Shown in pieces: positions 3,656 to 30,659 of a DNA stretch of 64,000 nucleotides; within the stretch, counting starts at the first letter, position 1; the number at the start of each line of letters is the position of its first letter. The position numbers and the translations under genes are program-made. This DNA is from Candidatus Bathyarchaeota archaeon. Its GTDB lineage: Archaea; Thermoproteota; Bathyarchaeia; Bathyarchaeales; Bathycorpusculaceae. The notes beneath the pieces are model-generated. The model made no database searches, was not told the DNA's origin, and saw nothing but the letters and a program-made list of their open reading frames with translations. Where the stretch lies: positions 864,001 to 928,000 of the forward strand of contig OY970280.1 of NCBI GenBank assembly GCA_963715865.1, given 5' to 3'.

Positions 3656-3702
3656 TGGTGGGGCTGGAGATCCTTGAACCCAAAAGGGTTCAAAACCTTA
3701 TT
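3656..3702. repeat. tRNA-3'-end-like site with TTGAAC-CCAAAAGG-GTTCAA palindrome
   Basis: TGGTGGGGCTGG (reverse complement of acceptor+CCA); 3674-3702 identical to 22248-22276 (29 bp). Confidence 0.8.
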
Positions 3703-3814
3703 GTTGCCAAGTGGTCTTTTCTCTCAAGCTTCAAATTCAGCGAGTGTAGTGTGGACCGGACCCGGCTTACCCGAAACGGGTATGAACCCTCGCCTAAACT
3801 TGAAGATTTAGTCT

Positions 3815-4501
3815 TTACCTATGCTTTTCTAACAGCATCTTTAGGACATCTTCATCCGTTAAGTCGTACCAGTTCACGTAGGCGTTTGCGACAGCGAATG
3901 ATGGCCCGCTTCTTATGTTGAGGCACACGATCTCATCTACTTCGGGAGCGAGCAGTTCGATAGCGCCTAAGGAAGCTGTGGGCACAGCGACGATTATTTT
4001 TTTAGGTGCTCTCTCCCTCACAGATCTCGCGGCAGCCAGCATAGTAAAGCCCGAGGCCAACCCGTCGTCGACGAGTACCACAACCTTGTCCTTTAAGTCG
4101 GGCATGGGTTTATCTCCCCTGAACTTTCTAAGCCTCTCTTGAATATTTCTCTTGGTCCTCAAGATTGACGTCTCCATCTCTTCTTCTGTCAGGTCTAACT
4201 GCTCAATCAGGCCTTCGTTTAGGACAATTTTGCCATCCCACGTTATCGCGCCAAATCCGGCTTCAGTGTTCCATGGAATTTGAACCTTCCTAACCACCAT
4301 CACATCCATCGGGACAGCGAGTTCCTTCGCGACCGTATAACCCACTGGAACTCCACCGGCAGGCACAGCCAAGACGATTACATTTCCGTTACCAGCGTAT
4401 TCTCGGAGTTTGTAGGCCAAAAGCTTGCCAGCCTGAAACCTGTCCCGAAATACAGATACGCGGTCTCTGTAAGCTGGATTCTCAATGATCTTCGCAGTCA
4501 T
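3815..4501 (-). CDS. Phosphoribosyltransferase-like protein
   Basis: FRDRFQAG N-terminus, VVLVDDGLASGFT PRPP-binding loop. Confidence 0.9.
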   Translation of the reverse strand: MTAKIIENPAYRDRVSVFRDRFQAGKLLAYKLREYAGNGNVIVLAVPAGGVPVGYTVAKELAVPMDVMVVRKVQIPWNTEAGFGAITWDGKIVLNEGLIEQLDLTEEEMETSILRTKRNIQERLRKFRGDKPMPDLKDKVVVLVDDGLASGFTMLAAARSVRERAPKKIIVAVPTASLGAIELLAPEVDEIVCLNIRSGPSFAVANAYVNWYDLTDEDVLKMLLEKHR

Positions 4502-4651
4502 AACCTAAACCTTACAGGGATAAATTATGAACTACACCTGATTTATCCTTACCTTTCAGACTATGCCAGTTGCTGTTGTGACCCGAATCGGATCCAACAA
4601 GCCCTTATATCGCGGAAATCGGAAATGTTCTTGCTAATTCTGGTGGAACAA

Positions 4652-5180
4652 ATGAAAAAAATGTTAATTTTGGTAGAAAACGGCGTAGAGGATTCAGAAT
4701 TCATTTACCCGTACTATCGATTTCGAGAAGAAGGCTACAAGATGGACATTGTTGCGCCCAAAGCGAAGAAGGAGTACATCGGCAAACACGGCGTGCCATT
4801 TACTTCGGAGATTTCACCTAATGAGGTGAATTTGGATGATTACGATGCAGTGATCATTCCCGGCGGTCAAGCCCCTGACCGTATGCGTATCCATCGAGAC
4901 CTAGTGGAAATGGTAAGGGCAGCAAATAGCAAAGGAAAAATTATCGCTGCGGTTTGCCATGGGCCTCAAATGCTTATTGAGGCGGACATTGTTCGAGGAA
5001 AGACAGCTACGAGTTGGCCTTCTGTTAGAACGGATCTGAGAAATGCGGGTTTTAGATGAACCTGCCGTGGTTGATGGAAACATTGTGACTTCGCGCTCTC
5101 CCGATGACTTGCCAGATTTCTGCCGAACAACGATAAAGCTCTTGGCTACTTTACAGAAGGATTCGGAAAAAGACGTCTAA
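4652..5180 (+). pseudogene. pfpI: PfpI/DJ-1 family glutamine amidotransferase-like protease, frameshifted near 5055
   Basis: GVEDSE, IIPGG, AVCHG motifs; C-terminus DEPAVVDGNIVTSRSPDDLP continues in another frame after NAGF. Confidence 0.85.
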
Positions 5181-5578
5181 ATAAAAGAGGAATCTGCGGC
5201 TCAACCATAGAAACGCTAATCGGTGAAGAATGCCATCTGTTTGCAAGCTATTTAAGAGATGAAAAGAAAGAAGGGTTCCAAGAGTAGGAATAACCGTCCA
5301 ACCAAAAATATACTCTCAGATGACCCGATTTCTCGATAAAACTCAATACTCTTAATGAGTAGACGTTTTTTTAGAATATTGTTATCTGAACGCTTTCACT
5401 TTTACCATATACTCTACTGTTGGGCAAGGTAGTTTGGTCATTCATTTATATGAGATTTGAGCCCTAAAGCATGCGTTTATAGATACCTAAAGAAACTACC
5501 ATAGCGCGTTTGATGGTTTTTAGGATTTGTAAAGTTTGTAATTGTTGACGTGCAGTCACAAATAGATATAGAGACGCA

Positions 5579-5977
5579 TTGAACAGTTTCTTAAATGGTT
5601 TTATAATGCTTGAAAGCCATATTGAGGAAAAACAGCGACCTAATTCTTCTGCGGTTGCCCAATCACGTAGAGCTTTGAGCGTTGTCAAATATGATTGTGG
5701 CTTCCATTTTTATATCACCCTTGGAAACTATACAGGGGTAACTGCAACAAGCCTTCAAGACTTAGCTCAAAAAATGCGGACAGTCAGTCTTGATTCTATT
5801 AAGTTCCATTTCGAGCGCGGAGATTTTCAAAGATGGATAAGATATATTTTCTGTGATCCTGAATTGGCAGAACGCATAGGGCTAATCAGCCCTGAGTTTT
5901 CAGCTGAAGATCTCAGAAAGGAGATCATAAATAAAATCGAAAGTCGCTTAATCCAATTGAAAGAGATTGCTAAATAG
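5579..5977 (+). CDS. DUF5752-like protein
   Basis: GFHFY...ATSLQDLAQK...SIKFHFERGDFQRWI pattern. Confidence 0.75.
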   Translation: MNSFLNGFIMLESHIEEKQRPNSSAVAQSRRALSVVKYDCGFHFYITLGNYTGVTATSLQDLAQKMRTVSLDSIKFHFERGDFQRWIRYIFCDPELAERIGLISPEFSAEDLRKEIINKIESRLIQLKEIAK

Positions 5978-6043
5978 ATATGCCGCTCACGATGAGTTAG
6001 CCGTAGAAGGCATATATGGACTGTTGATTTAATCTGGCTTAAG

Positions 6044-7300
6044 TCAGAGCTTGGAAAGCCTAACCGATAAAAAGGGAATGATCATTTCTTCGCTTGTCAT
6101 GCCTCCATGCGTTCCTAACTGTTGATGAACCCTATCATCTTCAAAGAAAGGATACTGCAAAGCGTTTTGCCTAGTGCCTAAAGCTGTAAAGTCTCCAACT
6201 TTTTCCTTTAGCCCTTCAGGATCCATCGGTTGCCCGAAGGCACCCTTATCGATTAATTCATTAGAGGAAAAAAGCTTGAACCCTTCAATGTTCTTTTTGA
6301 AGGCATCTGGAAAAGACTTGAGTTGACCTGGCTTTGAAAAAAGAAAAGTTGCTCTGCTATCACCAACTGGAGGCAGCATCAGTCGCGCCATTACTTCACT
6401 AGCATCCTTTAAGAAGTATGTTTTTCGTGTTTCCGCTACTCCATGGTCAGCCGTCAAGAGCATTAACGTTTCCTTCTTTGTCTTCGCTGAGAGTCCGCTA
6501 ATAAAATTCCTAATATCATGTTCTAAAGAGGTTAATTCAAAAGTTACCTCTTCTGAGTATGGCCCATATCTATGCGCAAGAGTATCAATCCCACTATAAT
6601 ACATTACAAGTAAAACGGGCTCTTGCTGTTCGAGCGCCTTCCTTGATCGCACTAGCATGTCAGACCCCAACAGGTAAGGTATCAACTTTTGGTCTTTATG
6701 TATAACCTGAGACAACCCGCTTCCAGCAATCGATGCTTTAGTCGCAACTAACGTTTTAACACCATTTTGTTCCAGACGGGGTAGCCATGGCTTGATATTT
6801 TGCGAGTAGTCTTTAGCTAAATCAACTTGGCCACTGTAACCATAAACTGGCCTCATATTCAAAGTATCGAAAACCAAGCCGTATTTTTTAGAGAACATGT
6901 GATAGCCAAGTATTTGATGTTGCGCAGGTGACAGACCGGTGAATATGCTTGCTAAGACAGTTGAAGTTGTCGAGGGAAAAACTGTAGTTAAAGGTTTAAG
7001 AGTACCTTTCTCAGCCAACTCCATGAAAGTTCCGTCATGGCTGTTTAGATGAGAAAGAAAACGCTTATACCCCAACCCATCCAAAATAAGTAAAACAAGT
7101 TTCTTGACGTCTTGTAAATCATCAAAATAATCATTAGGAAAACTTGGCGCGCCATGAGAGGTTATACCAAAAATTGCTCCAATTTGAGGCAAAATATTCT
7201 TAACATTAAGCCTTTGATAGTCAGGCAAAACAAAATCTTCATCAAAAGACCGCTCCCTTGAGAGAATTTCCATTTGCTCTTTAAAAATATCAGTTCTCAT
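6044..7300 (-). CDS. Alkaline phosphatase superfamily / nucleotide pyrophosphatase-phosphodiesterase
   Basis: LILDGLG, TVFPSTT, DTLAH, TADHG, HGG metal-binding motifs. Confidence 0.9.
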   Translation of the reverse strand: MRTDIFKEQMEILSRERSFDEDFVLPDYQRLNVKNILPQIGAIFGITSHGAPSFPNDYFDDLQDVKKLVLLILDGLGYKRFLSHLNSHDGTFMELAEKGTLKPLTTVFPSTTSTVLASIFTGLSPAQHQILGYHMFSKKYGLVFDTLNMRPVYGYSGQVDLAKDYSQNIKPWLPRLEQNGVKTLVATKASIAGSGLSQVIHKDQKLIPYLLGSDMLVRSRKALEQQEPVLLVMYYSGIDTLAHRYGPYSEEVTFELTSLEHDIRNFISGLSAKTKKETLMLLTADHGVAETRKTYFLKDASEVMARLMLPPVGDSRATFLFSKPGQLKSFPDAFKKNIEGFKLFSSNELIDKGAFGQPMDPEGLKEKVGDFTALGTRQNALQYPFFEDDRVHQQLGTHGGMTSEEMIIPFLSVRLSKL

Positions 7301-7325
7301 TAAGCTCTATCAAAATAATAATCCG

Positions 7326-7699
7326 TTAAGGAATATTAACTTTGAACTCGTCAAAGCGAGCTCTCACTTGTTTAACAATAAAATCTCTTAAGGCTTCTCC
7401 TTTCAAAGTGGTTCTTCCCCTTATGCTTAACAAGCCAAAACAGAGTCTTCCAGTGTATCTCTTGCCCATCTTTCAAAGTCTCAACGATAATAATGAAAAG
7501 CCAGCGATAGATTATCGATTTTTTCTATTGCCTTAGCAAAATCTGCCAAGCTATTCGCTTTTTCCCCAATTGCGTGTCCTATGGCTTTGTAGAAATAGAA
7601 GCTTTCTTGATCAGAGAGTGTTCGTAAAACCTTGTTAACGTCAACCTGAAATGGTACTTGTTCGCCGCCACAAGATTCCAGAACTGGAAATTGACTCAT
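7326..7699 (-). pseudogene. DUF5752-like pseudogene
   Basis: SFYFY..ANSLADF..FHYYR*DFERW: in-frame TGA where the paralog at 5579 has G; later frameshift. Confidence 0.7.
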
Positions 7700-11043: not shown

Positions 11044-11418
11044 ATGCATATCTGCGAGAAGTGCAAGCCAACTGAGAATAAAGTCACAAATCTCTTGGAA
11101 AGAAGTTTCCGCTTCCGATGCTTAAAAATAGATGATCTTGCTTTGCGCAACATTATGGAGGAGAAGCTTGTTGCGGTCACGGTGCATGCGACCGTGAAAG
11201 GTAAACCCTTTGTCGTAAGCGTTGCTTTCTCCTTCGAACACTTGAAAGCTTGCGAGAAATGCGGGGCGTATCCGCTGAAAGTGATAAGTGACAGAACAAG
11301 CACGCAGGACGTTGGGAAGGAAGAGCACATTGTAAGGCTGGTTTATTACGAGTGCCCTGCTGGGCATCAAAGCCAGCTCAGAAAGGTTATCCAGAAAAGG
11401 TTTCCGTGGAGGAATTAG
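11044..11418 (+). CDS. Cys-rich putative Zn-binding protein
   Basis: CxxC, CxxC and CxxxH motifs; directly upstream of the ATPase. Confidence 0.55.
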   Translation: MHICEKCKPTENKVTNLLERSFRFRCLKIDDLALRNIMEEKLVAVTVHATVKGKPFVVSVAFSFEHLKACEKCGAYPLKVISDRTSTQDVGKEEHIVRLVYYECPAGHQSQLRKVIQKRFPWRN

Positions 11419-11420
11419 AA

Positions 11421-12863
11421 TTGAGTTACAGGACGATACGAAATTTCAGTTACGCCAAGAAACTCAAGGCCAAGCCTGGCGTACACAACTTCAAATTTGA
11501 AGGCCAGCGAGCCAAGGGGCTGATAGCGCCAGACGGCAGGTCACTCAAAATCATTGGCGCTTCGCCAAGCGTCGCTAAACAAATAAAGCAGATTCCAGCG
11601 GGCACGAAGCTTGTGCCTGACGGAAACGTTCTGCGGAAACGGTCAACTTCCCCTGCGCCTGCAAAAGCTTCTCCCGTCTCTCCCGTCTCTACTGCTTCCA
11701 CCGTTTCTCCAACTTCTACTGCTTCTCCCGCACTAGTAACTCCTCCTGCTCCTGCACCAGCCGTAATCGTACCTGCTAAACCTGTGCAGACAGCGCAACA
11801 ACCCGATGAGGAAGAAGAATCTACTAGCAATATTGTGGCGCTTGCTTCTCCCCCTGTCTTGAGCGATAAGGATTGTGAGGCTGCAAGAGCCATTCCTATT
11901 CCAGCCACAGGGCCGATTCCTACGAAGTACATCGATTGGAATGCGATTCCAGAAAACTGTAAGGTCAAAGGCATTTCCTACTACGATTACCCAACTGATT
12001 CTGCTCCTAAAGGATTCCTGCCACTTTTGCGTGACTGTTTCAGGCTCAACAGGCTTTATCAGCATAAGAAACCGACGAATGTGATGATAGTCGGACCGCC
12101 AGGTACTGGAAAATCAACGTTGATCAAAAAGTTCGCTGAGGACACAGGTTTACCGTACTGGCAGATTATCGGACAAGACGGTTTGACAGCGGAAGACTTG
12201 CTGGGCAGATCGCACATGAGGGTGAAAAACGGGTCGACTGTGGATGTTTGGGAAGACGGCATAATTCCTAAAGCAGTGCGGAGCGGTGGCATTCTGCACT
12301 TTGACGAAGTGAACGTGTTCCCCCCTTCCGTTATGTTACGTCTTGACGAGTTGCTGGATGCTAAACGGCAGTTGAACATGCAGGACTTGAACGGCGAAAT
12401 CGTTAAGGCGCATCCTGACCTGTTCATCATATTCACGAAGAACCCTGACAACTACAACGGCGTTAACCCTGTGCCTCCTGCCGTTATAAACAGGACTAAG
12501 GTGCTTTGGCTACCATTTGCGCCTATGAATGTTGAGTTGAACATCCTGCAAAGCCAGCTTCGGGCTCTCGGCATAAAGGCCAACGAGTTCTCTGTTAATC
12601 CTAAAGGCGTCACTTCGGGCAAGATGGGGTCAGAAATAGCGGATTTCGTCAAGATCGTTGACAACCTGCGGAAGAACAAGCAATTACCAAGCCACCCAAG
12701 CATGAGGCAAACACTGGATTTCGCGCTTGCTTTACGGAACGGTGACAGCTTCCAAACAGCGTTCAACGGAACTATCAGAGACTACTACATTGCCCAAGAC
12801 GAGGAACAGTACGGCCAAGCAATGGATCAAGTGCTACGTGATGTGGGAAGATCAAAACCGTAA
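11421..12863 (+). CDS. MoxR/CbbQ-type AAA+ ATPase with N-terminal domain and Pro/Ser/Thr/Ala linker
   Basis: GPPGTGKS Walker A, LHFDEVN Walker B, WEDGII; TTG at 11421 after GGAGG. Confidence 0.88.
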   Translation: MSYRTIRNFSYAKKLKAKPGVHNFKFEGQRAKGLIAPDGRSLKIIGASPSVAKQIKQIPAGTKLVPDGNVLRKRSTSPAPAKASPVSPVSTASTVSPTSTASPALVTPPAPAPAVIVPAKPVQTAQQPDEEEESTSNIVALASPPVLSDKDCEAARAIPIPATGPIPTKYIDWNAIPENCKVKGISYYDYPTDSAPKGFLPLLRDCFRLNRLYQHKKPTNVMIVGPPGTGKSTLIKKFAEDTGLPYWQIIGQDGLTAEDLLGRSHMRVKNGSTVDVWEDGIIPKAVRSGGILHFDEVNVFPPSVMLRLDELLDAKRQLNMQDLNGEIVKAHPDLFIIFTKNPDNYNGVNPVPPAVINRTKVLWLPFAPMNVELNILQSQLRALGIKANEFSVNPKGVTSGKMGSEIADFVKIVDNLRKNKQLPSHPSMRQTLDFALALRNGDSFQTAFNGTIRDYYIAQDEEQYGQAMDQVLRDVGRSKP

Positions 12864-13444: not shown

Positions 13445-13999
13445 CTATTTTTTGAATTTGTCCAAATCAAATTACTGTGTAATACTCTTTTGTGCCTTAT
13501 ATCTTACGAATTCATAACACTTTTTTCTAAGTGTGGCCCTTTATAGACAGGGTCATAGCAATTGGATAAGCGGCGCACTAATCCCGGCTCTTTATTGTAG
13601 CCGCCAAAAACATTGACTTGCTGCCCATTAACACCCATGGAGAGCGAATTCGTAGTCGTGTTTGGTGGAGGGCGAGGAATTGCTTGAATGGCACTCCCTA
13701 TGTTCATGGATGGTGCAGCGCTACGCCTATCCGATGTGTTAGTCGAGTTAAAGATAGATGCAGATGGTGTTCCAAATAGCACCAAAATTATGCAAATGCA
13801 TAGAAACCGATTAGTTAACTGGTTCAGTCTCTCTCGCCTGTTTTTTAATTTACTGGTTTCAGAAACTTGAGTATGTTTAGATTTTATATTTAAGATTAAC
13901 CTATTTGCCTCGTAACTTGCCGACTATAAAAAATCATGCAAATTTTTATCTGATGCCTTAAAGTACAATTTAAACCCCAAAAGCCCAAACAGCTTAATT

Positions 14000-14641
14000 T
14001 TAGCGCTTGCGTTTCTTGAAGTAGACCAGAAGACCAGCGCAAGCAACAGCAACCAGAGCTACAGAAGCAGTTATTACTAATGTTGTTGAGAAGGAGTTTT
14101 GAGCTACGGTGACATCGTGAGGTATGGTGAAATTTTGAAATATTATGAAGGTTATTGGTTCAGAGTCTGCATTCACTGGGTAACTATTAAGCGCTGTATA
14201 ACCATTATTCACGTAGAAGCTATCTGCTTCAGCGCTTACCGTAATGTTATGCGCTCCTGATGTCAAAGTTAGGTTAGCTGAAAAGTTCAAGGTTCGTGGT
14301 GGGTAATTATTGAAAGGAGAATCGATGTCATGCACTGTAATATGGCGTTCACCGCCGTCCACTACGTAATATACAGAGGTTACATTTCCAAAAACGTCAT
14401 AGGCACCAGTAGGATACCATGCGTCAGGTTTGATTACTGAGAAGTTTAGCCAAACGTTGGGCGAATCGTAAGTTTCATTTTGAGCAGGCGAGTTCACAAC
14501 AATTGTTGGCGGCGTCTTAATGGGGTTAGGAGGAAAGGGAAATAATGGTGCAGGATTAGCCGTTGTCAAACCAACAAATGCAGTTGTATAAGAAAGCAAT
14601 ATTGCCAATATTAGAGATAACCCTAATACTGTTTTCTTCAT
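14000..14641 (-). CDS. Secreted Ig-like surface protein with C-terminal TM anchor
   Basis: Signal peptide, beta-rich body, LLVYFKKRKR end. Confidence 0.85.
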   Translation of the reverse strand: MKKTVLGLSLILAILLSYTTAFVGLTTANPAPLFPFPPNPIKTPPTIVVNSPAQNETYDSPNVWLNFSVIKPDAWYPTGAYDVFGNVTSVYYVVDGGERHITVHDIDSPFNNYPPRTLNFSANLTLTSGAHNITVSAEADSFYVNNGYTALNSYPVNADSEPITFIIFQNFTIPHDVTVAQNSFSTTLVITASVALVAVACAGLLVYFKKRKR

Positions 14642-14780
14642 GATTTTCTAACTCTTGCATCTCTTACAATAGCGTTGGAACCATATCAAATATAAGTGTA
14701 TTCGTCAAGGTTTCTCGACTAACCAAATGCTGACTGAGCAATTTCATTTCATATCTCCAAAAACCCAAACAACTTAATTT

Positions 14781-14945
14781 TCAGTGCTTGCGTTTTTTGA
14801 AGTAGACCAACAAACCAGCAACCACCACAACCGCTGCTGATGCTCCTGAAACAGCGGCAACAGTTGCGGTTGGAAAAGGCTCTATCTTTGTGTTAGGAGG
14901 CGTGACTGTGGGCGAAGGAGACGGCGAAGGAGTAGGCGAAGCAAG
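14781..14945 (-). pseudogene. Orphan C-terminal fragment of a paralogous surface protein
   Basis: Translates SPTPSPSPSPTVTPP..EPFPTATVAAV..GLLVYFKKRKH*; downstream DNA resembles that of the 14000 gene. Confidence 0.8.
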
Positions 14946-17340: not shown

Positions 17341-17373
17341 TGTTCCATTCTTCCCCAGTTCTCAACGGCAAAT

Positions 17374-19277: not shown

Positions 19278-19431
19278 GTGCCCATTTAAATTTAACTTTT
19301 ACCCCGATAGTTACACTGACATTCTGAAACTCTCAAACCCCGAAAAATTATCCGAACCCCTTTTCGGTTGTTTTAAATAGCCCTTCTTTAGATACGAAGA
19401 AGTGAAAAGCAAAACGTAGGAACTAATAGAC

Positions 19432-20040
19432 TTGATGCCTAACACAAGATGTGTTAAATTTGATGTCCCCAAGGATTGCAAACTAAGAAAATACTCGGAG
19501 CAATTAGTGTACATTTTTAAAAACAAAGACTACAAAGAAGATTTCAATAACTTTAGCGACCAACTATTCCATGATAGCTTTGCTTTCGTCAAAAAAGAGC
19601 TAAAAACAGACAAGCATCCTGTTATAGTAGTCGAGTTCGTTTACACTCAAACAGAATATGAAAGACTTGAAAAACAAGTAAACCAATTTGTGTACCAAAG
19701 AGAGAAGCCAAAAATTAAAACTCTTGGGTTTACGATAACAAGTAACTTCAGCAACAAGATTTACATTAATTTTGAGCCTCTTTTTGGGCTAATAGAAAAA
19801 AATTGTTCCGCCTTCGTGTTTAATCTAGTTTCAACGCTAATTCATGAAATTTTGCATTGCTTCTATCGTGACTTGAAAGATGAGCAAGCAACTTACGACC
19901 TTCACTGTAAAATGCTTGAAGTCTTTTTAGGCATAACTTTACCCGATGAAATGAAAGAGACAAAAGCATCCGATTACTATACATCAAAGATGCAGAAGTT
20001 AAATAGCTTAGGTGACGATTTTTCAAATAGACAAACCTAA
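19432..20040 (+). CDS. Zincin-like metallopeptidase domain protein
   Basis: TLIHEILHCF (HExxH). Confidence 0.65.
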   Translation: MMPNTRCVKFDVPKDCKLRKYSEQLVYIFKNKDYKEDFNNFSDQLFHDSFAFVKKELKTDKHPVIVVEFVYTQTEYERLEKQVNQFVYQREKPKIKTLGFTITSNFSNKIYINFEPLFGLIEKNCSAFVFNLVSTLIHEILHCFYRDLKDEQATYDLHCKMLEVFLGITLPDEMKETKASDYYTSKMQKLNSLGDDFSNRQT

Positions 20041-20102
20041 AAAGCGTTGCCCCAAGTCACTCATGTAAACGAAGACGCACAGCAAAAAGAAAAAAGGAAG
20101 AT

Positions 20103-21101
20103 TTAAGATGATTCTCTTACAGCAAAGAGAGTTTCCATCTTTTTCTGGTAATCTCTAAAACCGAATCCTGGATAAATCAAAAGAGTTTTTGGTTCAGCGA
20201 CTACGCTTTTTAGATACCCCTCATAGATTTTCTTGTTGTTTTTATCTTCCAAGAAATCCATTATTTGATTTAGCTGTTTTTCTCCAGCTTCACCAAGCTT
20301 CTTTTCTATGTTATCTATCTTCTCATCAAAGTTCTCAGAATCTTCCGAGTAGCGAAGCGGATTAGTTAGCGAGATTTTAATGCTTCTGAATAAGTCTTCA
20401 AGGTCCCAAGGTTGAAATATGCTGTTTTCTGCTTCTTTGAGTTTTTTTAGATGTCGCATAGCTTCGTAATAAACTGCTTGATCCGTTGGTTCACCTTGCT
20501 CTGGAAATTCTTTCTTCAAGCTGAAACGTGCGACAAGGGCAACCTGATTCAATCTTGCTGTTTCCACTTCTTTCTGTTCTTGTCGGCAAACAAGATTATA
20601 GGCTTCCAAAAGTAGCTTTCTGTATCTTAATATGATTTCATGTTCCTTAGGACCGCGCTCTGAAAGAACAAATTTTTCCCATATGTTCATAATTCTTTCT
20701 TCGACTTCAATAAAAGGAGAACCCTTTGAAAAATCGTCATCAATTAGCTTTCTAAGAATTGGTGAATCTGTAACAATCAGCCAACGAAAGTAGTAAGAAA
20801 GCCCTAATTTATTTTTGTCCTTTTCATGCAGCTGTTTGGAGAATTGTTCATTCAAGAATTCAGAAATATCACTGAGGAACATAGACTCTAAGCCTATTGG
20901 CTTTCTCTCAAATTTACGGGTTTCAATATTTCTTTCAATTAAACCTAGACTTTGAAGATGTTTTAGGTAATCGGAAAGGAGCGTAGGTTGATGAGAAAAA
21001 CCAGACAATTCCCCTATCTCTTTATTCCTTTGTGGCCCTTTTTCCAGAGCCTTTAATATTCTTATTTCGCCAGGAGCCAGTTTCCTCTCCTTACTTTTCA
21101 T
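20103..21101 (-). CDS. Winged-HTH domain protein
   Basis: ILKALEKGPQRNKEI..LSDYLKHLQSLGLIER N-terminal wHTH. Confidence 0.75.
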   Translation of the reverse strand: MKSKERKLAPGEIRILKALEKGPQRNKEIGELSGFSHQPTLLSDYLKHLQSLGLIERNIETRKFERKPIGLESMFLSDISEFLNEQFSKQLHEKDKNKLGLSYYFRWLIVTDSPILRKLIDDDFSKGSPFIEVEERIMNIWEKFVLSERGPKEHEIILRYRKLLLEAYNLVCRQEQKEVETARLNQVALVARFSLKKEFPEQGEPTDQAVYYEAMRHLKKLKEAENSIFQPWDLEDLFRSIKISLTNPLRYSEDSENFDEKIDNIEKKLGEAGEKQLNQIMDFLEDKNNKKIYEGYLKSVVAEPKTLLIYPGFGFRDYQKKMETLFAVRESS

Positions 21102-21237
21102 TAACTACACCATAACTATAGAAACTACAGTATAAGTATATTAGTTTTTCTTGGATTTTAACTATGATTAATGAGAAGTAACAAATGCCAAACATTAGAA
21201 AATTAATGAAACTTTATTACGGCAAAGAACCACGCGA

Positions 21238-21768
21238 GTGGTATATACTTCACAGGTTTTTCGGAGGGATTCTTTGACTCAATCGTTTAATGTCATGATT
21301 TGCGCTTCTCAAGAAACGCATCCAGACTTCATTAAATGTGCTGAAGGTGTTTGCAAAAAGAGACGATATAATATGATTTTCTCTCCATACAAATCACAAG
21401 AAAAACTTTTAGAAAAATTCGAAAACAGTTTACCTGACGCCAATATAATTTTAATGGACGTAACACCTCAAGAGCTTAAAGATTCAGAAAATAAAACACA
21501 CTACATTACAAATCAAGGAGTACTGATCGAATTTGGGTATATCATTGCCTTAAGAGACTATTACAAATTTCTTTACATTTTTTGTGATGCAACTAAGCTA
21601 GAAAAAACACACCCATATGTTCGAAACGAAACCATCAACAAATATTCAAAAGACAATCTGAGAGAAAAAATTCTCGGAAAAGTTGACGAACGCCTAAAAA
21701 GAATACCTTGCGAGTACATTACAGATAGAAAACGAATTAAAAACCTAGAAGAAAAAATTCTTAGATAA
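21238..21768 (+). CDS. Nucleoside 2-deoxyribosyltransferase/TIR-like domain protein
   Basis: ANIILMDVT..NQGVLIEFGYIIAL motif. Confidence 0.6.
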   Translation: MVYTSQVFRRDSLTQSFNVMICASQETHPDFIKCAEGVCKKRRYNMIFSPYKSQEKLLEKFENSLPDANIILMDVTPQELKDSENKTHYITNQGVLIEFGYIIALRDYYKFLYIFCDATKLEKTHPYVRNETINKYSKDNLREKILGKVDERLKRIPCEYITDRKRIKNLEEKILR

Positions 21769-21774
21769 AGGAAC

Positions 21775-22001
21775 GAGTTAGACGGCAAAGCGTTAACCTA
21801 CGAATGGACAGACATTCCCTCTATTGGTGCTCATGTTTTTGAACGCTTAGATTGCCCAACCAAAAAATCCTCTTGCTTCTAGAGAGAATATCCAAATTGA
21901 TCACGAGAGAGGGAGAAACTGTTCTTGACCCCTTCTGTGGTTGTGGAACTACAATTATGGCCTTTAAGGGATTGAAGAAACGGTGGATTGGTAAAGACTA
22001 A
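21775..22001 (+). pseudogene. C-terminal remnant of an N6A/N4C DNA methyltransferase
   Basis: EWTDIPSI..ERLDCPTKK, frameshift, then LLERI..GETVLDPFCGCGTT..RWIG*. Confidence 0.8.
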
Positions 22002-22120
22002 CATAATTGGCAATTTCATTTATTCATTCCCGTCTGACCTCTGAGAAAGCACTGATGATCACTATAGCGGCGGGGTCAAATTACAGCATCCAACAAACGT
22101 TGCAAAGCGGGTCATACAAA

Positions 22121-22181
22121 GGATTCGCTTAATGTTATTAGCGGGTCCGATGGGATTTGAACCGTGTTGGGTTCAAGCCGC
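22121..22181. repeat. GGATTCGCTTAA half-site plus tRNA-3'-like site TTGAAC-CGTGTTGG-GTTCAAGCCGC
   Basis: Direct reading; GTTCAAGCC arm is shared with the mini-element flanks. Confidence 0.8.
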
Positions 22182-22231
22182 ATTTATCGGACAACGCTTC
22201 TCCCGAACCAAACCAACATTCTATCTTGAAT

Positions 22232-22276
22232 GCGGACCCAGTGGGATTTGAACCCAAAAGGGTTCAAAACCTTATT
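22232..22276. repeat. tRNA-3'-like site TTGAAC-CCAAAAGG-GTTCAA
   Basis: GCGGACCCAGTGGGATTTGAAC; last 29 bp identical to 3674-3702. Confidence 0.8.
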
Positions 22277-22373
22277 CAAATAAGAAGGGATAATCTTCTC
22301 GTCTCAAATAGGAGCGGGCGGAAAAGAAGACTGACAACTCTGCTAATAAAATGTTAAGAATTATCCTCCAAAA

Positions 22374-22409
22374 GCGGGCCCGCTGGGACTCGAACCCCGC
22401 GGGGCGAAT
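22374..22409. repeat. tRNA-3'-like site, degenerate right arm
   Basis: GCGGGCCCGCTGGGACTCGAAC-CCCGCGGG-GCGAAT. Confidence 0.7.
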
Positions 22410-22482
22410 ATGTACTATCCACCTTTTTCCATGCACAAAAATTTAAACAGAGAGCCGCTTTTCGTGTATTAGAGGAAACTAA

Positions 22483-22722
22483 GTGTCTGGAAAATGGCTT
22501 AATTCTCACACCTATGGCTTAATGGCTCTTCTGTCTGGTATAACAGGCATCTTGTCTATAGCGGTTTCGCGAGCCTATTTGCCTGCTGGTTCATTGTTTG
22601 CGTTGCCTCTTTTAGTTTTAGGTTTATTTCTAGTTGTGGTTTCGGTTGTTTTCTTGTTCTTTTTCTTTACGATGCAGTGGCGTTGGACACATGGTCAACC
22701 ACAGCCACGTCCATTGACCTAA
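22483..22722 (+). CDS. Small 2-TM membrane protein
   Basis: 79 aa, two hydrophobic helices. Confidence 0.6.
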   Translation: MSGKWLNSHTYGLMALLSGITGILSIAVSRAYLPAGSLFALPLLVLGLFLVVVSVVFLFFFFTMQWRWTHGQPQPRPLT

Positions 22723-22759
22723 AAGCTAAATCGTTACGTTGTTACTAATCAGCCTTTTG

Positions 22760-23164
22760 TCACCCTTGCAAAGTTATTGTTTGTCCTGCAACATCATAGG
22801 AAATTACATTATACAAGTAGTTACCCAATAACAGAGTTTGATTAGAACCTAAGTCGTATTGAACAATTGGTTTACTATGTTCAAAAGTCGGAACAACAGG
22901 TGGCAGAAAACTTGCTACAGTTTGATTCATGTAAACTAACGTGTATTGAGAATCGTCTATCTCGTCCCCAACATGATAAGTTGCAGTAACTGGTATTTGC
23001 TTTTGAGAATTTTGAGCATTTTTAATTATCGGCTCTCCATACAGGACAAAGGTGAAAACTATGAGTGTCGTAACGACAATTGCTAGGATGATTTTTTGTT
23101 TATTTTTATCCATTTTTACCACCGATTTTAGCTTTTTCAATCTCCACTCGCTAGATGTTTTCAT
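22760..23164 (-). CDS. Membrane-anchored hypothetical protein
   Basis: N-terminal TM followed by beta-rich domain. Confidence 0.65.
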   Translation of the reverse strand: MKTSSEWRLKKLKSVVKMDKNKQKIILAIVVTTLIVFTFVLYGEPIIKNAQNSQKQIPVTATYHVGDEIDDSQYTLVYMNQTVASFLPPVVPTFEHSKPIVQYDLGSNQTLLLGNYLYNVISYDVAGQTITLQG

Positions 23165-23230
23165 CTTTGAAGAATAGTGTTTGCAAGCGGGATTGCACGG
23201 AAATAGATGGGGTCTGAACTGCTTTTTTCT

Positions 23231-23488
23231 TTACGTACGACGTTTTCGTCGCCGAATTAAAATCATCACTCCGTACATCACTCCTCCAGTGAATAGCGAA
23301 ATAAAGACTCCTTGAAATAGATTATACGCCAGACTCTCACCATCAAAAAAATTAGAGATTAAACCAAACGATAAGAAGAAACCTACCATAATTATAATAA
23401 TTCCCGCGTTTGGAAGCTCTTGAATCTTGAAAAGTCGCTTTAACCTGTCTTCAAATGAGGACAAAGTAGATGCCACTACCTTCAACAC
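23231..23488 (-). CDS. Small 2-TM membrane protein
   Basis: Two TM helices and a basic RRRKRR tail. Confidence 0.6.
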   Translation of the reverse strand: MLKVVASTLSSFEDRLKRLFKIQELPNAGIIIIMVGFFLSFGLISNFFDGESLAYNLFQGVFISLFTGGVMYGVMILIRRRKRRT

Positions 23489-23648
23489 ATTGTGAGAGCA
23501 GCAAGTATTTTACATTTTTCCCTGTCTTTGGGCAGAGCGAGTTTCTTGAATACCGATGGCGGAATACGCCAAGATGTACGTGGTAAGTTATCCCACGAAA
23601 AGCTTTCAAAAGGTTCCAGTCAAACGATAATGAGTAAATGTCTATGCA

Positions 23649-23744
23649 GGTGGCGAACCCGCTGGGATTCGTTTAATTATTTAAGCGAATCCTTTGTCTT
23701 AACCACAAACGAATAGTGGATCGCTGGGATTTGAACCCTAGGAC
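23649..23744. repeat. Two tandem tRNA-3'-like sites; the first carries the GGATTCGTTTAA-TTAT-TTAAGCGAATCC palindrome
   Basis: 23649-23692 and GTGGATCGCTGGGATTTGAACCC at 23716-23738. Confidence 0.78.
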
Positions 23745-23895
23745 AAGTGGAGATATCTCCCGCGCCATCTTCCCTCTTTTTCTTTTGGCTAAAGAAAACT
23801 CGGTTTTTCATAACCATTTCATTTTTGATTCTCGGATAACGTTCGTGCTGGAGTCGCATTTTTTATTATTCATACTTGCAGCTACGCCAGTCTCG

Positions 23896-24108
23896 TTAGG
23901 GGTTTACTCTTCCAACTCTTCTCAACAGTACGTTGGCTATCAAAGCCACAGCCAAATCGGCTAAAATCCAAACTATGAACGTAATAACTCCTAAGAGAGC
24001 CAAAAAAGTGAACAGCAGCAGAAGAGCTATTGCAATTATGCCGATTCTTTTCTTTCTTCGGCGTAATTTATCAGGGGTCAAATTAGTTGCGGCAGGCATA
24101 TCCGTCAC
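23896..24108 (-). CDS. Small membrane protein
   Basis: Basic patch followed by a hydrophobic hairpin. Confidence 0.65.
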   Translation of the reverse strand: MTDMPAATNLTPDKLRRRKKRIGIIAIALLLLFTFLALLGVITFIVWILADLAVALIANVLLRRVGRVNP

Positions 24109-26195: not shown

Positions 26196-26800
26196 GCTTG
26201 TTCCGAAATTAGTTGGCGAAGTATCTAATGCTTCTCGTTTTGCCAATTTTGTTTGTGTTAACGGCGGCTTGAGCCGTAATCAGCATGATTAGAATGCAAA
26301 GTTGAGAATGAAACGTTAAATTGGTCAAACCTCGCAGATTGTGTTCTTTTAAGCCTGCTAGGTTCTTGAGTCTGCTGAAAACCCGCTCTACAGCCACCCG
26401 TTTCTTGTATGCTGATTTGAATTTTCGTGGTCCGTGACTCCTAAACTTCCGATCAACTCTCAATATGCCTTTAACGCCTTTACTCTGATTCCTCGGATAA
26501 GGAATAACCGGCAACGCTCCACACTCCAATGCTGTTTCCCTCAGATTTGCTGCGCTGTACTGTGAGTCAGCCAAGAGCTTCCTTGGTTTTACGTATTCTG
26601 ATGCTTTCGCAAACAGGCTTATGGAATGTTTCTTCTCGTTCTCGTTTGCCGAAACCACAATCATCGCAATCGGCAGCTCACTTTTGACGTCAACAGCCAA
26701 ATGAAGCCTGTAACCTAAGTCTTTGGATTTGACTGCTCTTCCAATCCTTGATTCAGGATCGCTATAGCCTGTGCGGTCAAGGTTTCGCCTTTTATCTCGG
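26196..26800 (-). mobile_element. Truncated IS (DDE transposase, IS4/IS5/IS1182-like), C-terminal part
   Basis: YSDPESRIG..LGYRLHLAVD, LLADSQY, KKRVAVERVFSRLK; possible terminal repeat GCTTGTTCCGAAA at 26196. Confidence 0.85.
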
Positions 26801-26975
26801 CTTTCTCAAAATCACGTAAAAGGTACATTTCAGGGTCTTGCCTCTCCATGATGTTAAGGCGCGGGTTATGTGTCTCTTGTTGGATGATTAGGCGATGAGT
26901 GGTTAACCAGCCTACACCATTTGCCAGCTTGAAGGATAAGATTGTTTTTTCGCCTGGGAAGCCGTCAAATTTCAT
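26715..26975 (-). pseudogene. Hypothetical gene truncated by the transposase fragment
   Basis: Its last ~25 codons are transposase DNA read out of frame. Confidence 0.55.
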
Positions 26976-27428: not shown

Positions 27429-30080
27429 ATGAAATTTGCTAAAAACAAAACTATTGCTATTGCAATCGCTATATTCTTAATGCTTTCAATGACAGCTTCA
27501 ATGATGCTAGTTCCGGCTAATGCTCACACACCGGCATGGCAGGTTCCTACATATGCATTCATCAATGTCGCACCTAACCCAATAGGGGTAGGGCAACAAG
27601 TCTCTGTAACATTTTGGCTTGATAAAGTCCCGATCGGTGCAGAAGGGCAATGGGGATCAAGATGGCATAACATGAAAGTAACTGCTAAGGATCCTGACGG
27701 AACCAACACAACAATAGGCACGTTTAACTCTGACCCCAACGGCGGTGCAACAACATATTTCACTCCGACAAAAACAGGCACCTACACTTTCTACTTTGAG
27801 TTCCCAGGACAGATAGCACAAAATGAAAACCCATACCCATACGTAGGATTCATCGGACTTGGACTTGACTACGTCAACGACACTTTCTTACCAAGCAGCG
27901 CCTCCACAACACTTACAGTACAGTCACAAGCAATCTCCTACGCTTATGGAGCATCCCCCCTTCCAACTGCATACTGGACACGTCCAATAAACTCCATGAA
28001 CAGAGAATGGGCACCCATCACTGGCAACTGGCTAGGCCTTGGAGCAACATCCTTTGGCGTAACCGGCATGTACACTGACACTGGAGGAGTAACCTCTGCA
28101 GGAGGAAACTTTGACCCATACTCAACAGCACCAAATAGCGCCCACGTCATGTGGACGCAACCTATAGCGTTCGGCGGTCAGATTGGAGGAGAATTCGGAA
28201 CCGGCGACGCAGCTATCTATGCCACTGGAACAGCTTACGAATGCAAATTCGGCGCCGTAATACTAAACGGAATTCTCTATTATACCGAGTATCCGGGCGC
28301 AGGAACCAACCCATCAGGTCTGAAGGCTGTTGACTTAAGAACTGGCGCAACAGTTTGGGACAAGAACATCACCGACCCGCTAAGATGCGGCATGGTAACA
28401 AACTTCCAAACCGGCGACCAATACGGAGGACACGCATACCTGTTCACTACAAATTCCTATGAAGGATTCGCTGAGCCTTACTCTGCACTCACCGCACCCA
28501 CTACTTGGGGAATGTACGATGCAATGACCGGAGACTGGATACTAAACATTGCAGGTGTACAAGCCTCTGATGATCTTGTAGAAGGTCCAAACGGAGAAAT
28601 ACTATGCTACTACGTTAACAGCTCATCTACAACCGGTGCAGCCTCCCTTAGCATGTGGAATTCATCTTTATGCATCGCGCAAGGCTCCCAGTCAAATCTT
28701 TTCTATCTTACTTACAGCGCTAAAGAAATTTGGCGACCCGTGCAAGGAGCAACTATCCCATGGAGTGCAGGAATCCAATGGAGCGTACCCATCGCGACCA
28801 GTATCAATGGTGTTTCAATGGCTCCATACACTTTAGGCGTAGCAGGGATCGACAACAACACCATACTTATGACCGCGACTACAGGAGGAATATTCGCCGG
28901 ACCACCAGGCGGAGCATCATTAGGCTTCAGATATGATGCAGGTTACAGTACAACAGGTCAACTGCTTTGGGGTCCAGTGAACCGCACGTTAACACCATTC
29001 ACTACACAAGTTCTGTCAGTTGGTGACGGAAAATACGCTGAATACACTCAACAAATGCTGACGTGGACAATGTACGATCTCAAAACTGGAAACAAACTAT
29101 TCACAACGCCACAATCGAATAGTTCCTGGAGCTACTATGACTTCACTGGTCCAAGCACTTTTGGATACGGAAACTTCTACACTTGGGGCTTAGGTGGAAC
29201 AGTATACTGCTACGATGACACTACCGGTCAACTTAAATGGAGTTGGTCCGCTGGAACAGCAGGTCTAGATACCCCATACGGAACCTGGCCTTTAGGTACC
29301 TGGTCAAGTCACCATATCCTTGCAGACGGCAAGCTCTATGTTAGAGCCGGACATGACTACACTCCACCAGTCTTCAAAGGTGCAAAGATTTACTGTATCA
29401 ACGCTACAACTGGAAAAGAAATTTGGGACTCACTTAGCTTCGACATCGTAAGTTCGCCTGCACTCGCAGATGGATACATGGTCTGGGATAACGGCTATGA
29501 CAACCAAATATACTCTTACGGCCAGGGACCAAGCGCATTGACTGTTTCAGCGCCTAGCGTTGGCGTGACAACCTCTACGCCTATAACTATAAGCGGCACC
29601 GTAACCGACATCTCTGCCGGAACAAAACAAGACGCGGTAGCATCGAACTTCCCGAACGGTCTTCCATGCGTTTCTGACGCAAGCATGAGCAGGTGGATGG
29701 AATACGTTTACCAGCAGCAACCATGCCCAACTAATGTGACTGGTGTTCCAGTTACCCTAAGTGTTCTTGACTCAAACGGCAACTACAGACAAATCGGCAA
29801 CACCACAAGTAATGCAGACGGCTTGTTCGCTTATACTTGGACACCTGATATTCCAGGCAGTTACACTGTCATCGCTAACTTTGCAGGTTCAGAATCGTAC
29901 TATCCATCATCCGCTGACGCAGCCTTCTATGCCAGTTCTCCAGCGCCAACAGCATCTCCATATCCAGTGACCGTTTTGCCTCCGACTGAAATGTACATTG
30001 GCGCAGCAGCAGCCGCAATAATAGTTGCAATAGCCATAGTCGGCGTTATAATAGTAATGATGCTTAGGAAGCGACCATAA
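27429..30080 (+). CDS. Large secreted PQQ-like beta-propeller surface protein with Ig-like domains and C-terminal TM
   Basis: Signal peptide, repeated D..TG..W motifs, C-terminal TM plus RKRP. Confidence 0.88.
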   Translation: MKFAKNKTIAIAIAIFLMLSMTASMMLVPANAHTPAWQVPTYAFINVAPNPIGVGQQVSVTFWLDKVPIGAEGQWGSRWHNMKVTAKDPDGTNTTIGTFNSDPNGGATTYFTPTKTGTYTFYFEFPGQIAQNENPYPYVGFIGLGLDYVNDTFLPSSASTTLTVQSQAISYAYGASPLPTAYWTRPINSMNREWAPITGNWLGLGATSFGVTGMYTDTGGVTSAGGNFDPYSTAPNSAHVMWTQPIAFGGQIGGEFGTGDAAIYATGTAYECKFGAVILNGILYYTEYPGAGTNPSGLKAVDLRTGATVWDKNITDPLRCGMVTNFQTGDQYGGHAYLFTTNSYEGFAEPYSALTAPTTWGMYDAMTGDWILNIAGVQASDDLVEGPNGEILCYYVNSSSTTGAASLSMWNSSLCIAQGSQSNLFYLTYSAKEIWRPVQGATIPWSAGIQWSVPIATSINGVSMAPYTLGVAGIDNNTILMTATTGGIFAGPPGGASLGFRYDAGYSTTGQLLWGPVNRTLTPFTTQVLSVGDGKYAEYTQQMLTWTMYDLKTGNKLFTTPQSNSSWSYYDFTGPSTFGYGNFYTWGLGGTVYCYDDTTGQLKWSWSAGTAGLDTPYGTWPLGTWSSHHILADGKLYVRAGHDYTPPVFKGAKIYCINATTGKEIWDSLSFDIVSSPALADGYMVWDNGYDNQIYSYGQGPSALTVSAPSVGVTTSTPITISGTVTDISAGTKQDAVASNFPNGLPCVSDASMSRWMEYVYQQQPCPTNVTGVPVTLSVLDSNGNYRQIGNTTSNADGLFAYTWTPDIPGSYTVIANFAGSESYYPSSADAAFYASSPAPTASPYPVTVLPPTEMYIGAAAAAIIVAIAIVGVIIVMMLRKRP

Positions 30081-30311
30081 AAATGCCAAACAAAATCCAC
30101 TTTCCCCTTTTTTAGTCTCTAGAAAGCAATGGAGAAGAAATGGGCTGAGAAGGCTCTGGTTAAATTAACGATTGACCAATAGCAAATCGAAATAGCATTT
30201 GCATTCTTTTCTCCTAAAGAGTGTTCCAGAGCCTCAGCAAACCCTAAATGCTCAAAGATGTCGCCAATCAGTCATTGTCTTTTTTTAGGAAACATGGTTT
30301 AGTCTTTCCAA

Positions 30312-30437
30312 GTGGCGCCGGGAGAGAGGGATGAAGATTTGAATCCTTGAAGCGTCAAAGGAAAATTCGAATTTAGGTAAATAATTTTTATGTAAGGTTC
30401 CACTAGACTTTGGGTTCGGAGCCCAGCGGCCCCGCCA
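30312..30437. repeat. Two tRNA-3'-like fragments in opposite orientation
   Basis: GTGGCGCCGGGAGAGGGAT (30312) and GGGTTCGGAGCCCAGCGGCCCCGCCA (30412-30437). Confidence 0.7.
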
Positions 30438-30484
30438 TTAAGAAAGCGATTTGGCTGACTCTAAAAAACTGTAAGATAAAGATT

Positions 30485-30659
30485 GCGGCTTGAACCCGTT
30501 TGAGAGTGTGTGAAAACTCAAATTTAGTTTTAGAAATTGCAGCTTATATCTAAAAACACGTCCTGGCACCCTACCGAATCGACGTAAAAGTAGCAATTTT
30601 CTGAAATTGAAACTAGTTTTCACACAGTCTCGTTTGGGTTCAAGTTCGGCTCGGCCCAT
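30485..30659. mobile_element. Mini-element copy 2 (126-bp core)
   Basis: GCGGCTTGAAC-CCGTTTGA-GAGTGTGTGAAAACT ... AGTTTTCACACAGTC-TCGTTTGG-GTTCAAGTTCGGC. Confidence 0.72.

Follow-up and report, generated by a model that had tools for sequence, protein, structure and literature searches.

The window analysed here is a stretch of 64,000 nucleotides (bases 864001 to 928000) of the closed 2.35-Mb chromosome of a Candidatus Bathyarchaeota archaeon. Between 3.6 and 30.7 kb of the window lies an island with 13 short sites that copy the 3' ends of tRNA genes. We conclude that these sites are probably attachment-site (att) junctions of tRNA-targeting integrative elements, which have been stacked, hybridised and rearranged. 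Most likely, they represent a known kind of scar that is unusually dense, modular and mixed here, and not an integron. Coordinates refer to the window unless they are given as genome positions.

Anatomy and distribution of the tRNA-end sites

All 13 sites proposed in an initial annotation of this DNA are present, 11 on the minus strand and two on the plus strand. Twelve are convincing copies of tRNA 3' ends, and the site at 3751 is degenerate. Read in the tRNA sense, the sites close with the 3' strands of the T stem and the acceptor stem, several of them with CCA. A tRNA body upstream of the fragment is absent at every one of the 13 sites. ARAGORN and Rfam find one tRNA gene in the window, tRNA-Gly(GCC) at 33469 to 33546 (minus strand), and none of the 13 sites resembles it. 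The initial annotation had described a family of tRNA 3' ends that do not run on into a tRNA, do not match tRNA-Gly and lie mostly on the strand of tRNA-Gly and the integrase. All of this agrees with our results, and matching the acceptors to the host tRNA set, as it had advised, gave identities of 13 to 23 nt. The arm-spacer-arm palindromes that it quoted were located at 3674 to 3693, 22157 to 22176, 22248 to 22267 and about 17680 to 17705.

For the chance test, the last 20 nt of every host tRNA (T loop to discriminator) were searched with at most three mismatches. Outside tRNA genes, this gave 30 copies in the genome and 2 in the reversed genome. Seven of the 30 fall within 3.6 to 30.7 kb of the window (27 kb), where 0.34 would be expected (Poisson P = 8e-8). 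The sites are not at background frequency, a possibility that the initial annotation had raised against its own proposal. Another 11 copies share the strand of their cognate tRNA and lie 0.3 to 7.7 kb downstream of it, the layout classically left by elements that integrate into tRNA genes. Direct repeats with one copy in an intact tRNA are seen at 11 other genomic loci, in genome G041 and at locus L157. In the window, the repeat pairs 17801/22139 and 17661/23649 are without an intact tRNA, and no copy of the tRNA-Gly end was found.

Each junction consists of an element-side arm and a tRNA 3' end, which runs from the T loop or T stem through the acceptor, with or without CCA. The element-side arms are of three recurring types. 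In type A, two 12-bp arms and a loop of 4 nt form a hairpin (sites 17801 and 23649). Its right arm ends with ATCC, which leads into CA and an Arg- or Lys-type acceptor strand. In type B, the palindrome is a mirror image of the T arm's 5' half and reads TTGAACCC, four bases, GGGTTCAA (sites 3656, 22232 and 22139). Type C is an arm of about 45 nt (site 23716). At sites 15277 and 30638, the palindrome is type B-like and has long arms.

The type A pattern, allowing up to two mismatches, occurs in 24 of 61 genus genomes, mostly in several copies, and the reversed pattern occurs in none; such a scan of the genome and its relatives had been proposed as a check of the sites. Within a 301-genome sample of the class, type A is nearly restricted to this genus. 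Exact matches were found in 98 stretches of peat and wetland metagenome contigs, where the flanks are unrelated. Among 65 distinct copies, the information content is high over about 48 nt only, from the hairpin to the end of the Arg-like tail, and is zero on both sides; subfamilies have an extra 22 to 90 nt in common upstream. The cargo beside type A sites is varied and includes ABC transporters, winged-helix regulators and surface proteins. Tandem sites 4 to 47 nt apart are frequent. A mini-element of about 140 nt (22248 to 22388) occurs three times in this genome, and at least 12 further genomes of the genus have copies at 76 to 97% identity, compared with 70 to 80% for conserved flanks. Free viral forms were looked for as well, and neither the type A nor the type B pattern matched IMG/VR contigs. 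In the literature searched, the compact palindrome-plus-tRNA-end module with its three-copy motif layout does not seem to have been described. The same seems to hold for its use with unrelated cargo across a genus, for gene-less mini-elements and for mixed tRNA identities within one array.

The individual sites differ in arm and tRNA identity. The site at 3656 to 3702 (minus) combines a type B palindrome (TTGAACCC-N4-GGGTTCAA) with a Pro(CGG) end that matches at 15 of 15 positions including CCA. The weakest member, at 3751 to 3795 (minus), is a degenerate T-arm-like stretch with a small hairpin and about 9 nt of an Ala-like acceptor; a copy is located at genome 219138 to 219182. At 15277 to 15451 (minus), a Val(TAC)-like end (17/20) is joined to a long palindrome, whose inverted arms of about 30 nt enclose about 90 to 130 nt and resemble a miniature inverted-repeat element (MITE). 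Its inverted partner at 30484 to 30659 (plus), which is site 30638, carries a Val(TAC) end (19/20) with a long-palindrome unit. The two are 175-nt units that share 39 nt at 95% (alignment A1), and further copies of the unit at 15277 to 15451 occur in other genomes of the genus.

The Arg-type sites lie between these partners. The site at 17661 to 17705 (minus) has a looser, type B-like palindrome and an Arg(GCG/CCG)-like end with CCACC. It forms a direct repeat (21/22) with the site at 23649 to 23693 (minus), where a type A hairpin is followed by an Arg(GCG)-like end with CCACC, and the downstream flanks of both are partly alike. The site at 17801 to 17845 (minus) is a type A hairpin with an Arg(TCT) end (16/16). 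It shares an exact 18-nt direct repeat with the site at 22139 to 22183 (minus), a type B palindrome with an Arg(TCT) end (23/23), and the pair encloses a 4.3-kb block without integrase. In the tRNA sense, site 22139 has the direct half of the type A arm (TTAAGCGAATCC) 6 nt past its tRNA end. The site at 22232 to 22276 (minus) is a hybrid of a type B palindrome and an Arg(TCG)-like end (18/20), and that at 22374 to 22418 (minus) has a CCCCGCGGGG palindrome and an Arg(CCG)-like end (18/20). The gene-less mini-element (22248 to 22388, minus) consists of an Arg-like core end, 105 nt and a type B palindrome. At 23716 to 23775 (minus), 24 nt upstream of site 23649, a type C arm (AAAAGAGGG...GAGATATCTCCACT) precedes a T arm and a truncated Arg-like end; T arm plus CCCAGCG matches 17/17 and the sequence is divergent thereafter. 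The remaining two sites are a Ser(GGA)-like end (13/13) at 30312 to 30356 (minus), downstream of the gene for an 883-amino-acid (aa) surface protein, and a Pro(GGG)-like T arm and acceptor with CCA at 30412 to 30437 (plus). The arrangement of surface-protein gene and site 30312 recurs at about 2010.4 kb of the genome.

The blocks of the island are 1.2 to 11.5 kb long and multi-gene, with open reading frames (ORFs) on both strands. The islets at 15.3 to 23.7 kb contain no integrase. In G041, a 21-kb element that carries an integrase is closed by the type A end seen here. The 15.3 to 23.7-kb region was found in synteny in none of 60 genus genomes, which hold only scattered pieces of it on other contigs, and G018 has no island between tRNA-Pro and the flank. 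The proposal that the sites delimit variable, mostly integrase-less blocks is borne out by this; invariant cargo among relatives would have told against it, and the cargo is not invariant. A PHROGs search of the island ORFs was essentially blank.

The integrase, its motif and the place of strand exchange

The window encodes a tyrosine integrase of 435 aa (32107 to 33414, minus strand), which belongs to a large Bathyarchaeia family. The intact tRNA-Gly(GCC) forms the tRNA-proximal junction. The integrase gene starts 55 nt past the 3' end of the tRNA, and the arm between them (33415 to 33468, minus) contains GGTTCAAAACC. The family comprises 3543 database proteins at E < 1e-10, some of them named site-specific integrase of Bathyarchaeota. 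In the integrase alignment A2, R157, K202, R271/R276, H303 and Y311 are invariant, a set of residues that fits the active site of tyrosine recombinases. The Pfam model PF00589 scores a weak 19.9 bits for the window integrase and is above its cut-off for the paralogue beside tRNA-Pro(CGG) and for many homologues. In NCBIfam, the window integrase matches archaeal XerA only, with 32.8 bits against a cut-off of 220. The integron-integrase model TIGR02249 gave no match (E up to 0.01), and a sequence search of the PDB returned nothing informative.

We compared 11 integrase loci in nine genomes. In each, the gene immediately follows the 3' end of a tRNA (Gly, Ala, Pro or Arg) or a palindrome-plus-fragment site, and all have CCC, four bases and a GGGTTCARRWCC-like motif between the tRNA end and the start codon. 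In the window, the motif is GGTTCAAAACC, and the far arm of the type B palindromes has this very 11-mer on the opposite strand. The element of G041 begins with tRNA-Arg(CCG), followed by the 12-mer TTAAGCGAATCC six bases after CCA and by an integrase that is 48% identical to that of the window; further on are a second, classical integrase and a type I restriction-modification system. At its far end, 21.3 kb from the tRNA, there is a type A hairpin with the same 18-nt core, AATCCCAGCGGGCCCGCCA, which is present in both the tRNA and the distal site. At locus L157, tRNA-Arg(TCG) is followed by a type A site 7.2 kb on and then by the native flank.

As the half-arm of G041 recurs after site 22139, both palindrome types are built from one motif layout: an inverted copy, four bases, a direct copy that overlaps with the beginning of the tRNA-like part, the tRNA end, 2 to 8 nt and another direct copy. 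From this layout, we infer that the 11- to 12-bp arm motif is a recombinase-binding motif, as expected of an attP region. The two 12-bp candidate binding motifs are GGGTTCARAACC and TTAAGCGMATCC. The initial annotation had taken the sites for tyrosine-recombinase attachment sites derived from tRNA 3' ends, which the tRNA identities and the arm motif beside integrases support. Its palindrome arms are conserved and probably constitute a protein-binding motif tied to the integrase family of the window. Type A is present in 9 of 11 integrase-positive and 15 of 50 integrase-negative genus genomes. This co-occurrence is only suggestive of an association between integrase family and site type because related genomes are not independent.

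Breakpoints of homology were mapped with 93 type A copies, using pairs that are alike on one side only. Copies with the same upstream cargo have the same hairpin including the loop and diverge directly after ATCCCA into other acceptor strands and flanks. Where the native downstream flank is the same, cargo and loops differ. Because the loop segregates with the upstream cargo, the hairpin belongs to the element. The hairpin is kept whole and divergence sets in right after ATCCCA, so that exchange is placed in the tRNA-like part and not in the palindrome spacer. Moreover, the left arm of the palindrome was never found in target tRNAs, and the identity of a displaced end with its tRNA starts in the T stem or T loop. 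Most likely, exchange occurs at ATCCCA or immediately 3' of it, in the segment that begins at the T-loop end and includes the 3' strand of the T stem. This agrees with the T stem-loop that has been proposed as the core of archaeal tRNA att sites (PMC7253208). The idea that the 6- to 8-bp spacer of the palindrome is the crossover region was part of the initial annotation and had to be abandoned: the left arm is absent from tRNAs, and the co-travel of the loop with the upstream cargo rules it out. The type B copies lose homology at 58/59 in the T loop, at 65/66, where T stem and acceptor meet, and in one group at 68/69.

Mixed tRNA identities, nesting and rearrangement

The sites between 15.3 and 23.7 kb are all co-oriented and divide blocks of 1.2 to 4.3 kb without integrase. 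Here, the pair 17801/22139 is nested within the pair 17661/23649. The type B arm of site 22232 usually bears a Pro(CGG) end, and the join to its Arg(TCG)-like end lies inside the common GGGTTCAA.

Site 3656 is the displaced original end of tRNA-Pro(CGG) and borders the ancestral flank (window 1 to 3550). In G018, G009, G006 and G013, this left flank lies 2.6 to 6 kb from tRNA-Pro(CGG) or its upstream genes. Here, tRNA-Pro(CGG) and the paralogous integrase are at 231 kb of the genome, 636 kb distant, and only the 3' end remains at 3656. The displaced end of tRNA-Gly(GCC), 17 nt with an exact match, is found at genome 673865 to 673881 on the opposite strand, 224 kb away. It is preceded by a type B-like arm, and the DNA after it corresponds to that downstream of tRNA-Gly in G018. 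The adjoining 678 to 684-kb region is downstream of tRNA-Gly in G002, G015 and G018. This arrangement would fit an inversion that spans about 224 kb and has its ends at the tRNA-Gly junctions; either an integrase or homologous recombination could have been the agent. The 674 to 684-kb region is itself rearranged among relatives. In addition, the block 3668 to 7489 is duplicated, in inverted orientation, at genome 219265 to 216158 (96% and 87% identity). The duplicated block starts exactly inside the palindrome of site 3656 and contains genes for a phosphoribosyltransferase, a DJ-1/PfpI protein and a phosphodiesterase.

The mixed identities result from nested and tandem insertion, hybrid sites and large rearrangements. 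Pairs of heterologous att sites after inversions are known from Thermococcales (PMC7253208, PMC5495485). A dedicated multi-site array at tRNA-Gly is not the source of the mixture.

Several other joints were observed. In tRNA-Arg(TCG) and tRNA-Arg(GCG) (genome 1300500 to 1300576 and 2113179 to 2113257), the 5' acceptor strand GGGCTCG faces the 3' strand CGGGCCC, which gives a G-U pair, and displaced ends of relatives (L046, L032, L157) bear the fully complementary CGAGCCC. This looks like a footprint of 3'-end replacement by an element with an Arg(CCG)-type end. At genome 219233 to 219300 and at L065 (G037:C126), two type B sites stand head to head (...GGGTTCAAGGATCT|ATGGGATTTGA...), the same junction in two species. 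Such a joint of left half to left half is not expected from canonical tyrosine recombination between inverted sites. The type B sites at genome 1585753 to 1585770 and 1732485 to 1732530 are cut after CCCAT and both joined to AGAGACTAGAAC, which is either a recurrent partner or a non-tRNA target. ARAGORN also reports tRNAs with introns of 427 to 2043 nt (genome 338177 to 340318, 598507 to 599029 and 1015542 to 1016861). These calls are probably artefacts or pairings of a tRNA 5' part with a distant displaced 3' end.

Explanations, known systems and other features of the island

The explanation that we favour is as follows. Small elements would insert into the 3' part of tRNA genes by tyrosine-integrase recombination, and strands would be exchanged within the tRNA-like part. 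The likeliest segment for this is (A)ATCCCA(N), which covers the 3' end of the T loop and the 3' strand of the T stem. Insertion would restore the tRNA with an element-borne end, and the old tRNA end would be pushed outward and then be preceded by the palindrome of the element. Repeated insertion into tRNAs or displaced ends, followed by loss of integrases and cargo, would leave islets of 1 to 4 kb and empty elements of 40 to 140 nt. Sites of unlike tRNA identity with near-identical T arms could also exchange with each other, and at least two large chromosome rearrangements are likely to have contributed. The model builds on the observed anatomy and distribution of the sites, the homology breakpoints and the synteny breaks; from these, we infer protein binding and the exact cleavage positions, and the sites may or may not still be active. 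Flexible choice of tRNA, heterologous attL/attR after inversion, tandem integration and integrase loss have precedents (PMC7253208, PMC8371274, PMC5495485), as do partial tRNAs scattered through islands (bioRxiv 10.1101/2020.12.28.424599).

Some observations weigh against this explanation. Type B homology breaks at three positions, so that the exact crossover is not fixed, and the link between integrase family and site type rests on co-occurrence plus a few loci. The integrase family of the window was absent from 80 type A metagenome contigs, which are mostly short, and an unrelated integrase type was present on three or four of them. The gene blocks of the island were not found elsewhere as discrete, site-flanked units. 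Nothing pointed directly to present activity of the sites. Among sequencing runs, none was near-identical and none was an RNA run; only two DNA runs had small shares (0.08 and 0.05) of window 15000 to 24000. Finally, how the Arg-type array came to lie between the Pro end and tRNA-Gly is only partly reconstructed.

The initial annotation had favoured an integron-like platform, in which the integrase beside tRNA-Gly captures and reshuffles cassettes through palindromic sites, with exchange in the 6- to 8-bp spacer. The compact (about 46 to 48 bp), conserved modules with unrelated cargo on either side, the tandem sites 4 to 47 nt apart, the gene-less mini-elements and the occurrence of the same native flank with different cargo would all suit such a platform, and the geometry is compatible with 11-6-11 or 10-8-10. 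However, loop and both arms move with the upstream cargo, divergence follows ATCCCA, and the left arm is missing from target tRNAs. The spacers differ as well (ATAA, TAGT, TACT, TTTT, CAACAC), which would block exchange that depends on spacer homology. The integrase has no match to the integron-integrase model, and the blocks hold several genes on both strands and do not recur as discrete cassettes in relatives. They are not single, co-oriented, promoterless cassettes. The attC core motifs GTTRRRY/RYYYAAC are absent by inspection: the arms read GGATTCGCTTAA or TTGAACCC, and GTTCAAA departs from the GTTRRRY consensus. In G037, the integrase gene is itself flanked by sites, as if it were mobile. 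We therefore regard the integron-like reading as improbable; the more exciting reading was corrected because this is not a new integron. Another view is that the sites are inert debris, that is, decayed old insertions without present function, with palindromes that arise incidentally from T-arm symmetry. Sites 3751, 23716 and 30312 are indeed degenerate, and few integrases remain in this genome. Against this, the type A hairpin is conserved in 24 genomes and 98 metagenome stretches despite unrelated flanks, the arm motif stands in fixed register beside integrase genes, and the mini-elements are 76 to 97% identical across species while flanks are at 70 to 80%, which makes plain debris unlikely.

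A function at the RNA level, with hairpin and tRNA-like tail as a small RNA, a signal for transcript 3' ends or processing, or a terminator, is very improbable. T runs follow several sites in the tRNA sense, hairpins form on either strand, and 23664 to 23693 meets a loose terminator pattern. However, no relevant Rfam family matches, either at the gathering threshold or at E up to 10, a GC-rich acceptor strand and not a T run follows the conserved hairpin, and hairpin variants show mismatches instead of compensatory changes. A tRNA-like minihelix is impossible because the 5' acceptor strand is missing. Terminator-like sites number 10 where 7.0 +/- 2.8 are expected and are not enriched, and the palindromes are not the simple terminators that the initial annotation had considered as a way for its proposal to fail. 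Since the sites exceed background frequency, have variable cargo and are no simple terminators, they are real recombination-type sites linked to variable DNA. Split tRNAs occur in Archaea, and ARAGORN missed several isoacceptors in this genome, which would leave room for split or permuted genes whose 3' halves are joined in trans to distant 5' halves. Each isoacceptor of a fragment is present intact elsewhere in the genome, however, and the fragments begin in the T arm and not after the anticodon. They are often mutated relative to the host tRNA, and a genome-wide search with a tRNA model found no orphan 5' halves. Split, permuted or intron-bearing tRNAs were rejected, and we give this reading next to no credence.

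Among known systems, the closest are archaeal tRNA-targeting elements with non-suicidal (type II, pNOB8-like) integrases, for which tandem integration and integrase loss are described with examples from Thaumarchaeota and Thermococcales (PMC8371274). In both, the att core copies a tRNA 3' end (here with 13 to 23 nt identical to host tRNAs), the integrase sits at the tRNA-proximal junction and the displaced end at the far junction. Elements are stacked at a single locus, and many of those integrated lack an integrase. Unlike in those elements, the arm is a compact, conserved palindromic module with unrelated cargo and several tRNA identities, many islets are of 1 to 4 kb or empty units of 40 to 140 nt, and most sites of the window are not beside their cognate tRNA. 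For Thermococcales (PMC5495485, PMC7253208), a T stem-loop att core with a flexible tRNA target has likewise been proposed, and inversions between elements in different tRNA genes unite unlike att sites. Here, the integrase belongs to another family and stays unsplit upon integration, the host lineage (Bathyarchaeia) is mesophilic, and the rearrangements are deduced from synteny alone.

Accretion is also known from the cis-mobilizable elements (CIMEs) of Streptococcus (PMC5704250) and the tycheposon islands of Prochlorococcus (bioRxiv 10.1101/2020.12.28.424599). There, too, older insertions are displaced outward by later ones, the island is strewn with partial tRNAs and with att-flanked remnants that have no integrase, and mobilisation in trans is possible. 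Like CIMEs, the window has stacked att-flanked units without recombinase, and their att ends also occur on elements with an integrase. The Streptococcus and Prochlorococcus systems are from bacteria and use other integrases, and a palindromic module with a triple motif layout and mixed tRNA identities per array was not reported for them. Integrons, including archaeal ones (bioRxiv 10.1101/2022.02.06.479319 / PMC9668308), also have short, imperfect palindromic sites at the ends of recombinase-less gene units, in arrays beside an integrase. Here, in contrast, there is no IntI-type integrase and no attC core, and exchange is in a tRNA-like segment. The palindromes could be read as 11-6-11 like those of Xer/dif-exploiting elements (IMEX; 11-nt inverted arms, 6-nt spacer), but the spacers vary and the breakpoints lie outside.

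Capture or mobilisation in trans of integrase-less islets through the compact modules is plausible as a hypothesis. It is conceivable, though less likely than not, that the module of about 46 to 48 bp (12-bp motif palindrome plus tRNA 3' end) may suffice for movement in trans by this integrase family, with tRNAs as docking points and cross-recombination of unlike sites. If so, tRNA genes and displaced ends would be docking points for a genus-wide pool of islets and empty units of 40 to 140 nt, and the system would be a functional archaeal counterpart of gene capture by integrons or CIMEs, made from different parts. Since the exchange segment ATCCCA is common to many tRNAs, the same enzymes could then cross-recombine unlike sites and rearrange the chromosome. 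Bathyarchaeia are abundant and uncultured, and their routes of gene gain are little known. This locus and its relatives show that a large part of the variable DNA in one genus is strung along tRNA-end attachment sites whose compact arms are held in common. Most units have lost their integrase, and the same sites mark breakpoints of rearrangements that span hundreds of kilobases. The integrase family, the two 12-bp candidate binding motifs and the predicted exchange segment may serve as reagents for archaeal site-specific recombination, and the sequence signatures can be used to find islands in metagenome-assembled genomes.

The remaining features of the island concern its cargo. At 15681 to 17340, a DNA polymerase beta-like nucleotidyltransferase of 180 aa (16798 to 17340, minus) lies beside a 354-aa ORF without family match, and the two may form a toxin-antitoxin or defence pair. 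Across the genus, the nucleotidyltransferase gene is common, with no sites close to it. The 883-aa surface protein (27429 to 30080) has PQQ/beta-propeller and Ig-like domains. The 3' third of its gene is repeated in about 20 genomic paralogues, and the paralogue at about 2010 to 2011 kb shares sites 30312 and 30412. An insertion-sequence remnant sits within the island at 26209 to 26975, where fragments of a DDE transposase gene (PF01609) are accompanied by repeated flanking DNA that recurs at several positions in the genome. A 63-nt direct repeat (87%) at 13977 to 14038 and 14757 to 14819 was rejected as a recombination site, as it is the common C-terminal coding end (...LVYFKKRK*) of two adjacent genes for surface or membrane proteins. 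The cargo at 11352 to 12863 and 20103 to 21768 looks defence-related: one product is an AAA_5 (McrB/MoxR-like) ATPase, another is a winged-helix protein that weakly matches primase-PriX, and there is a weak TIR-like match.

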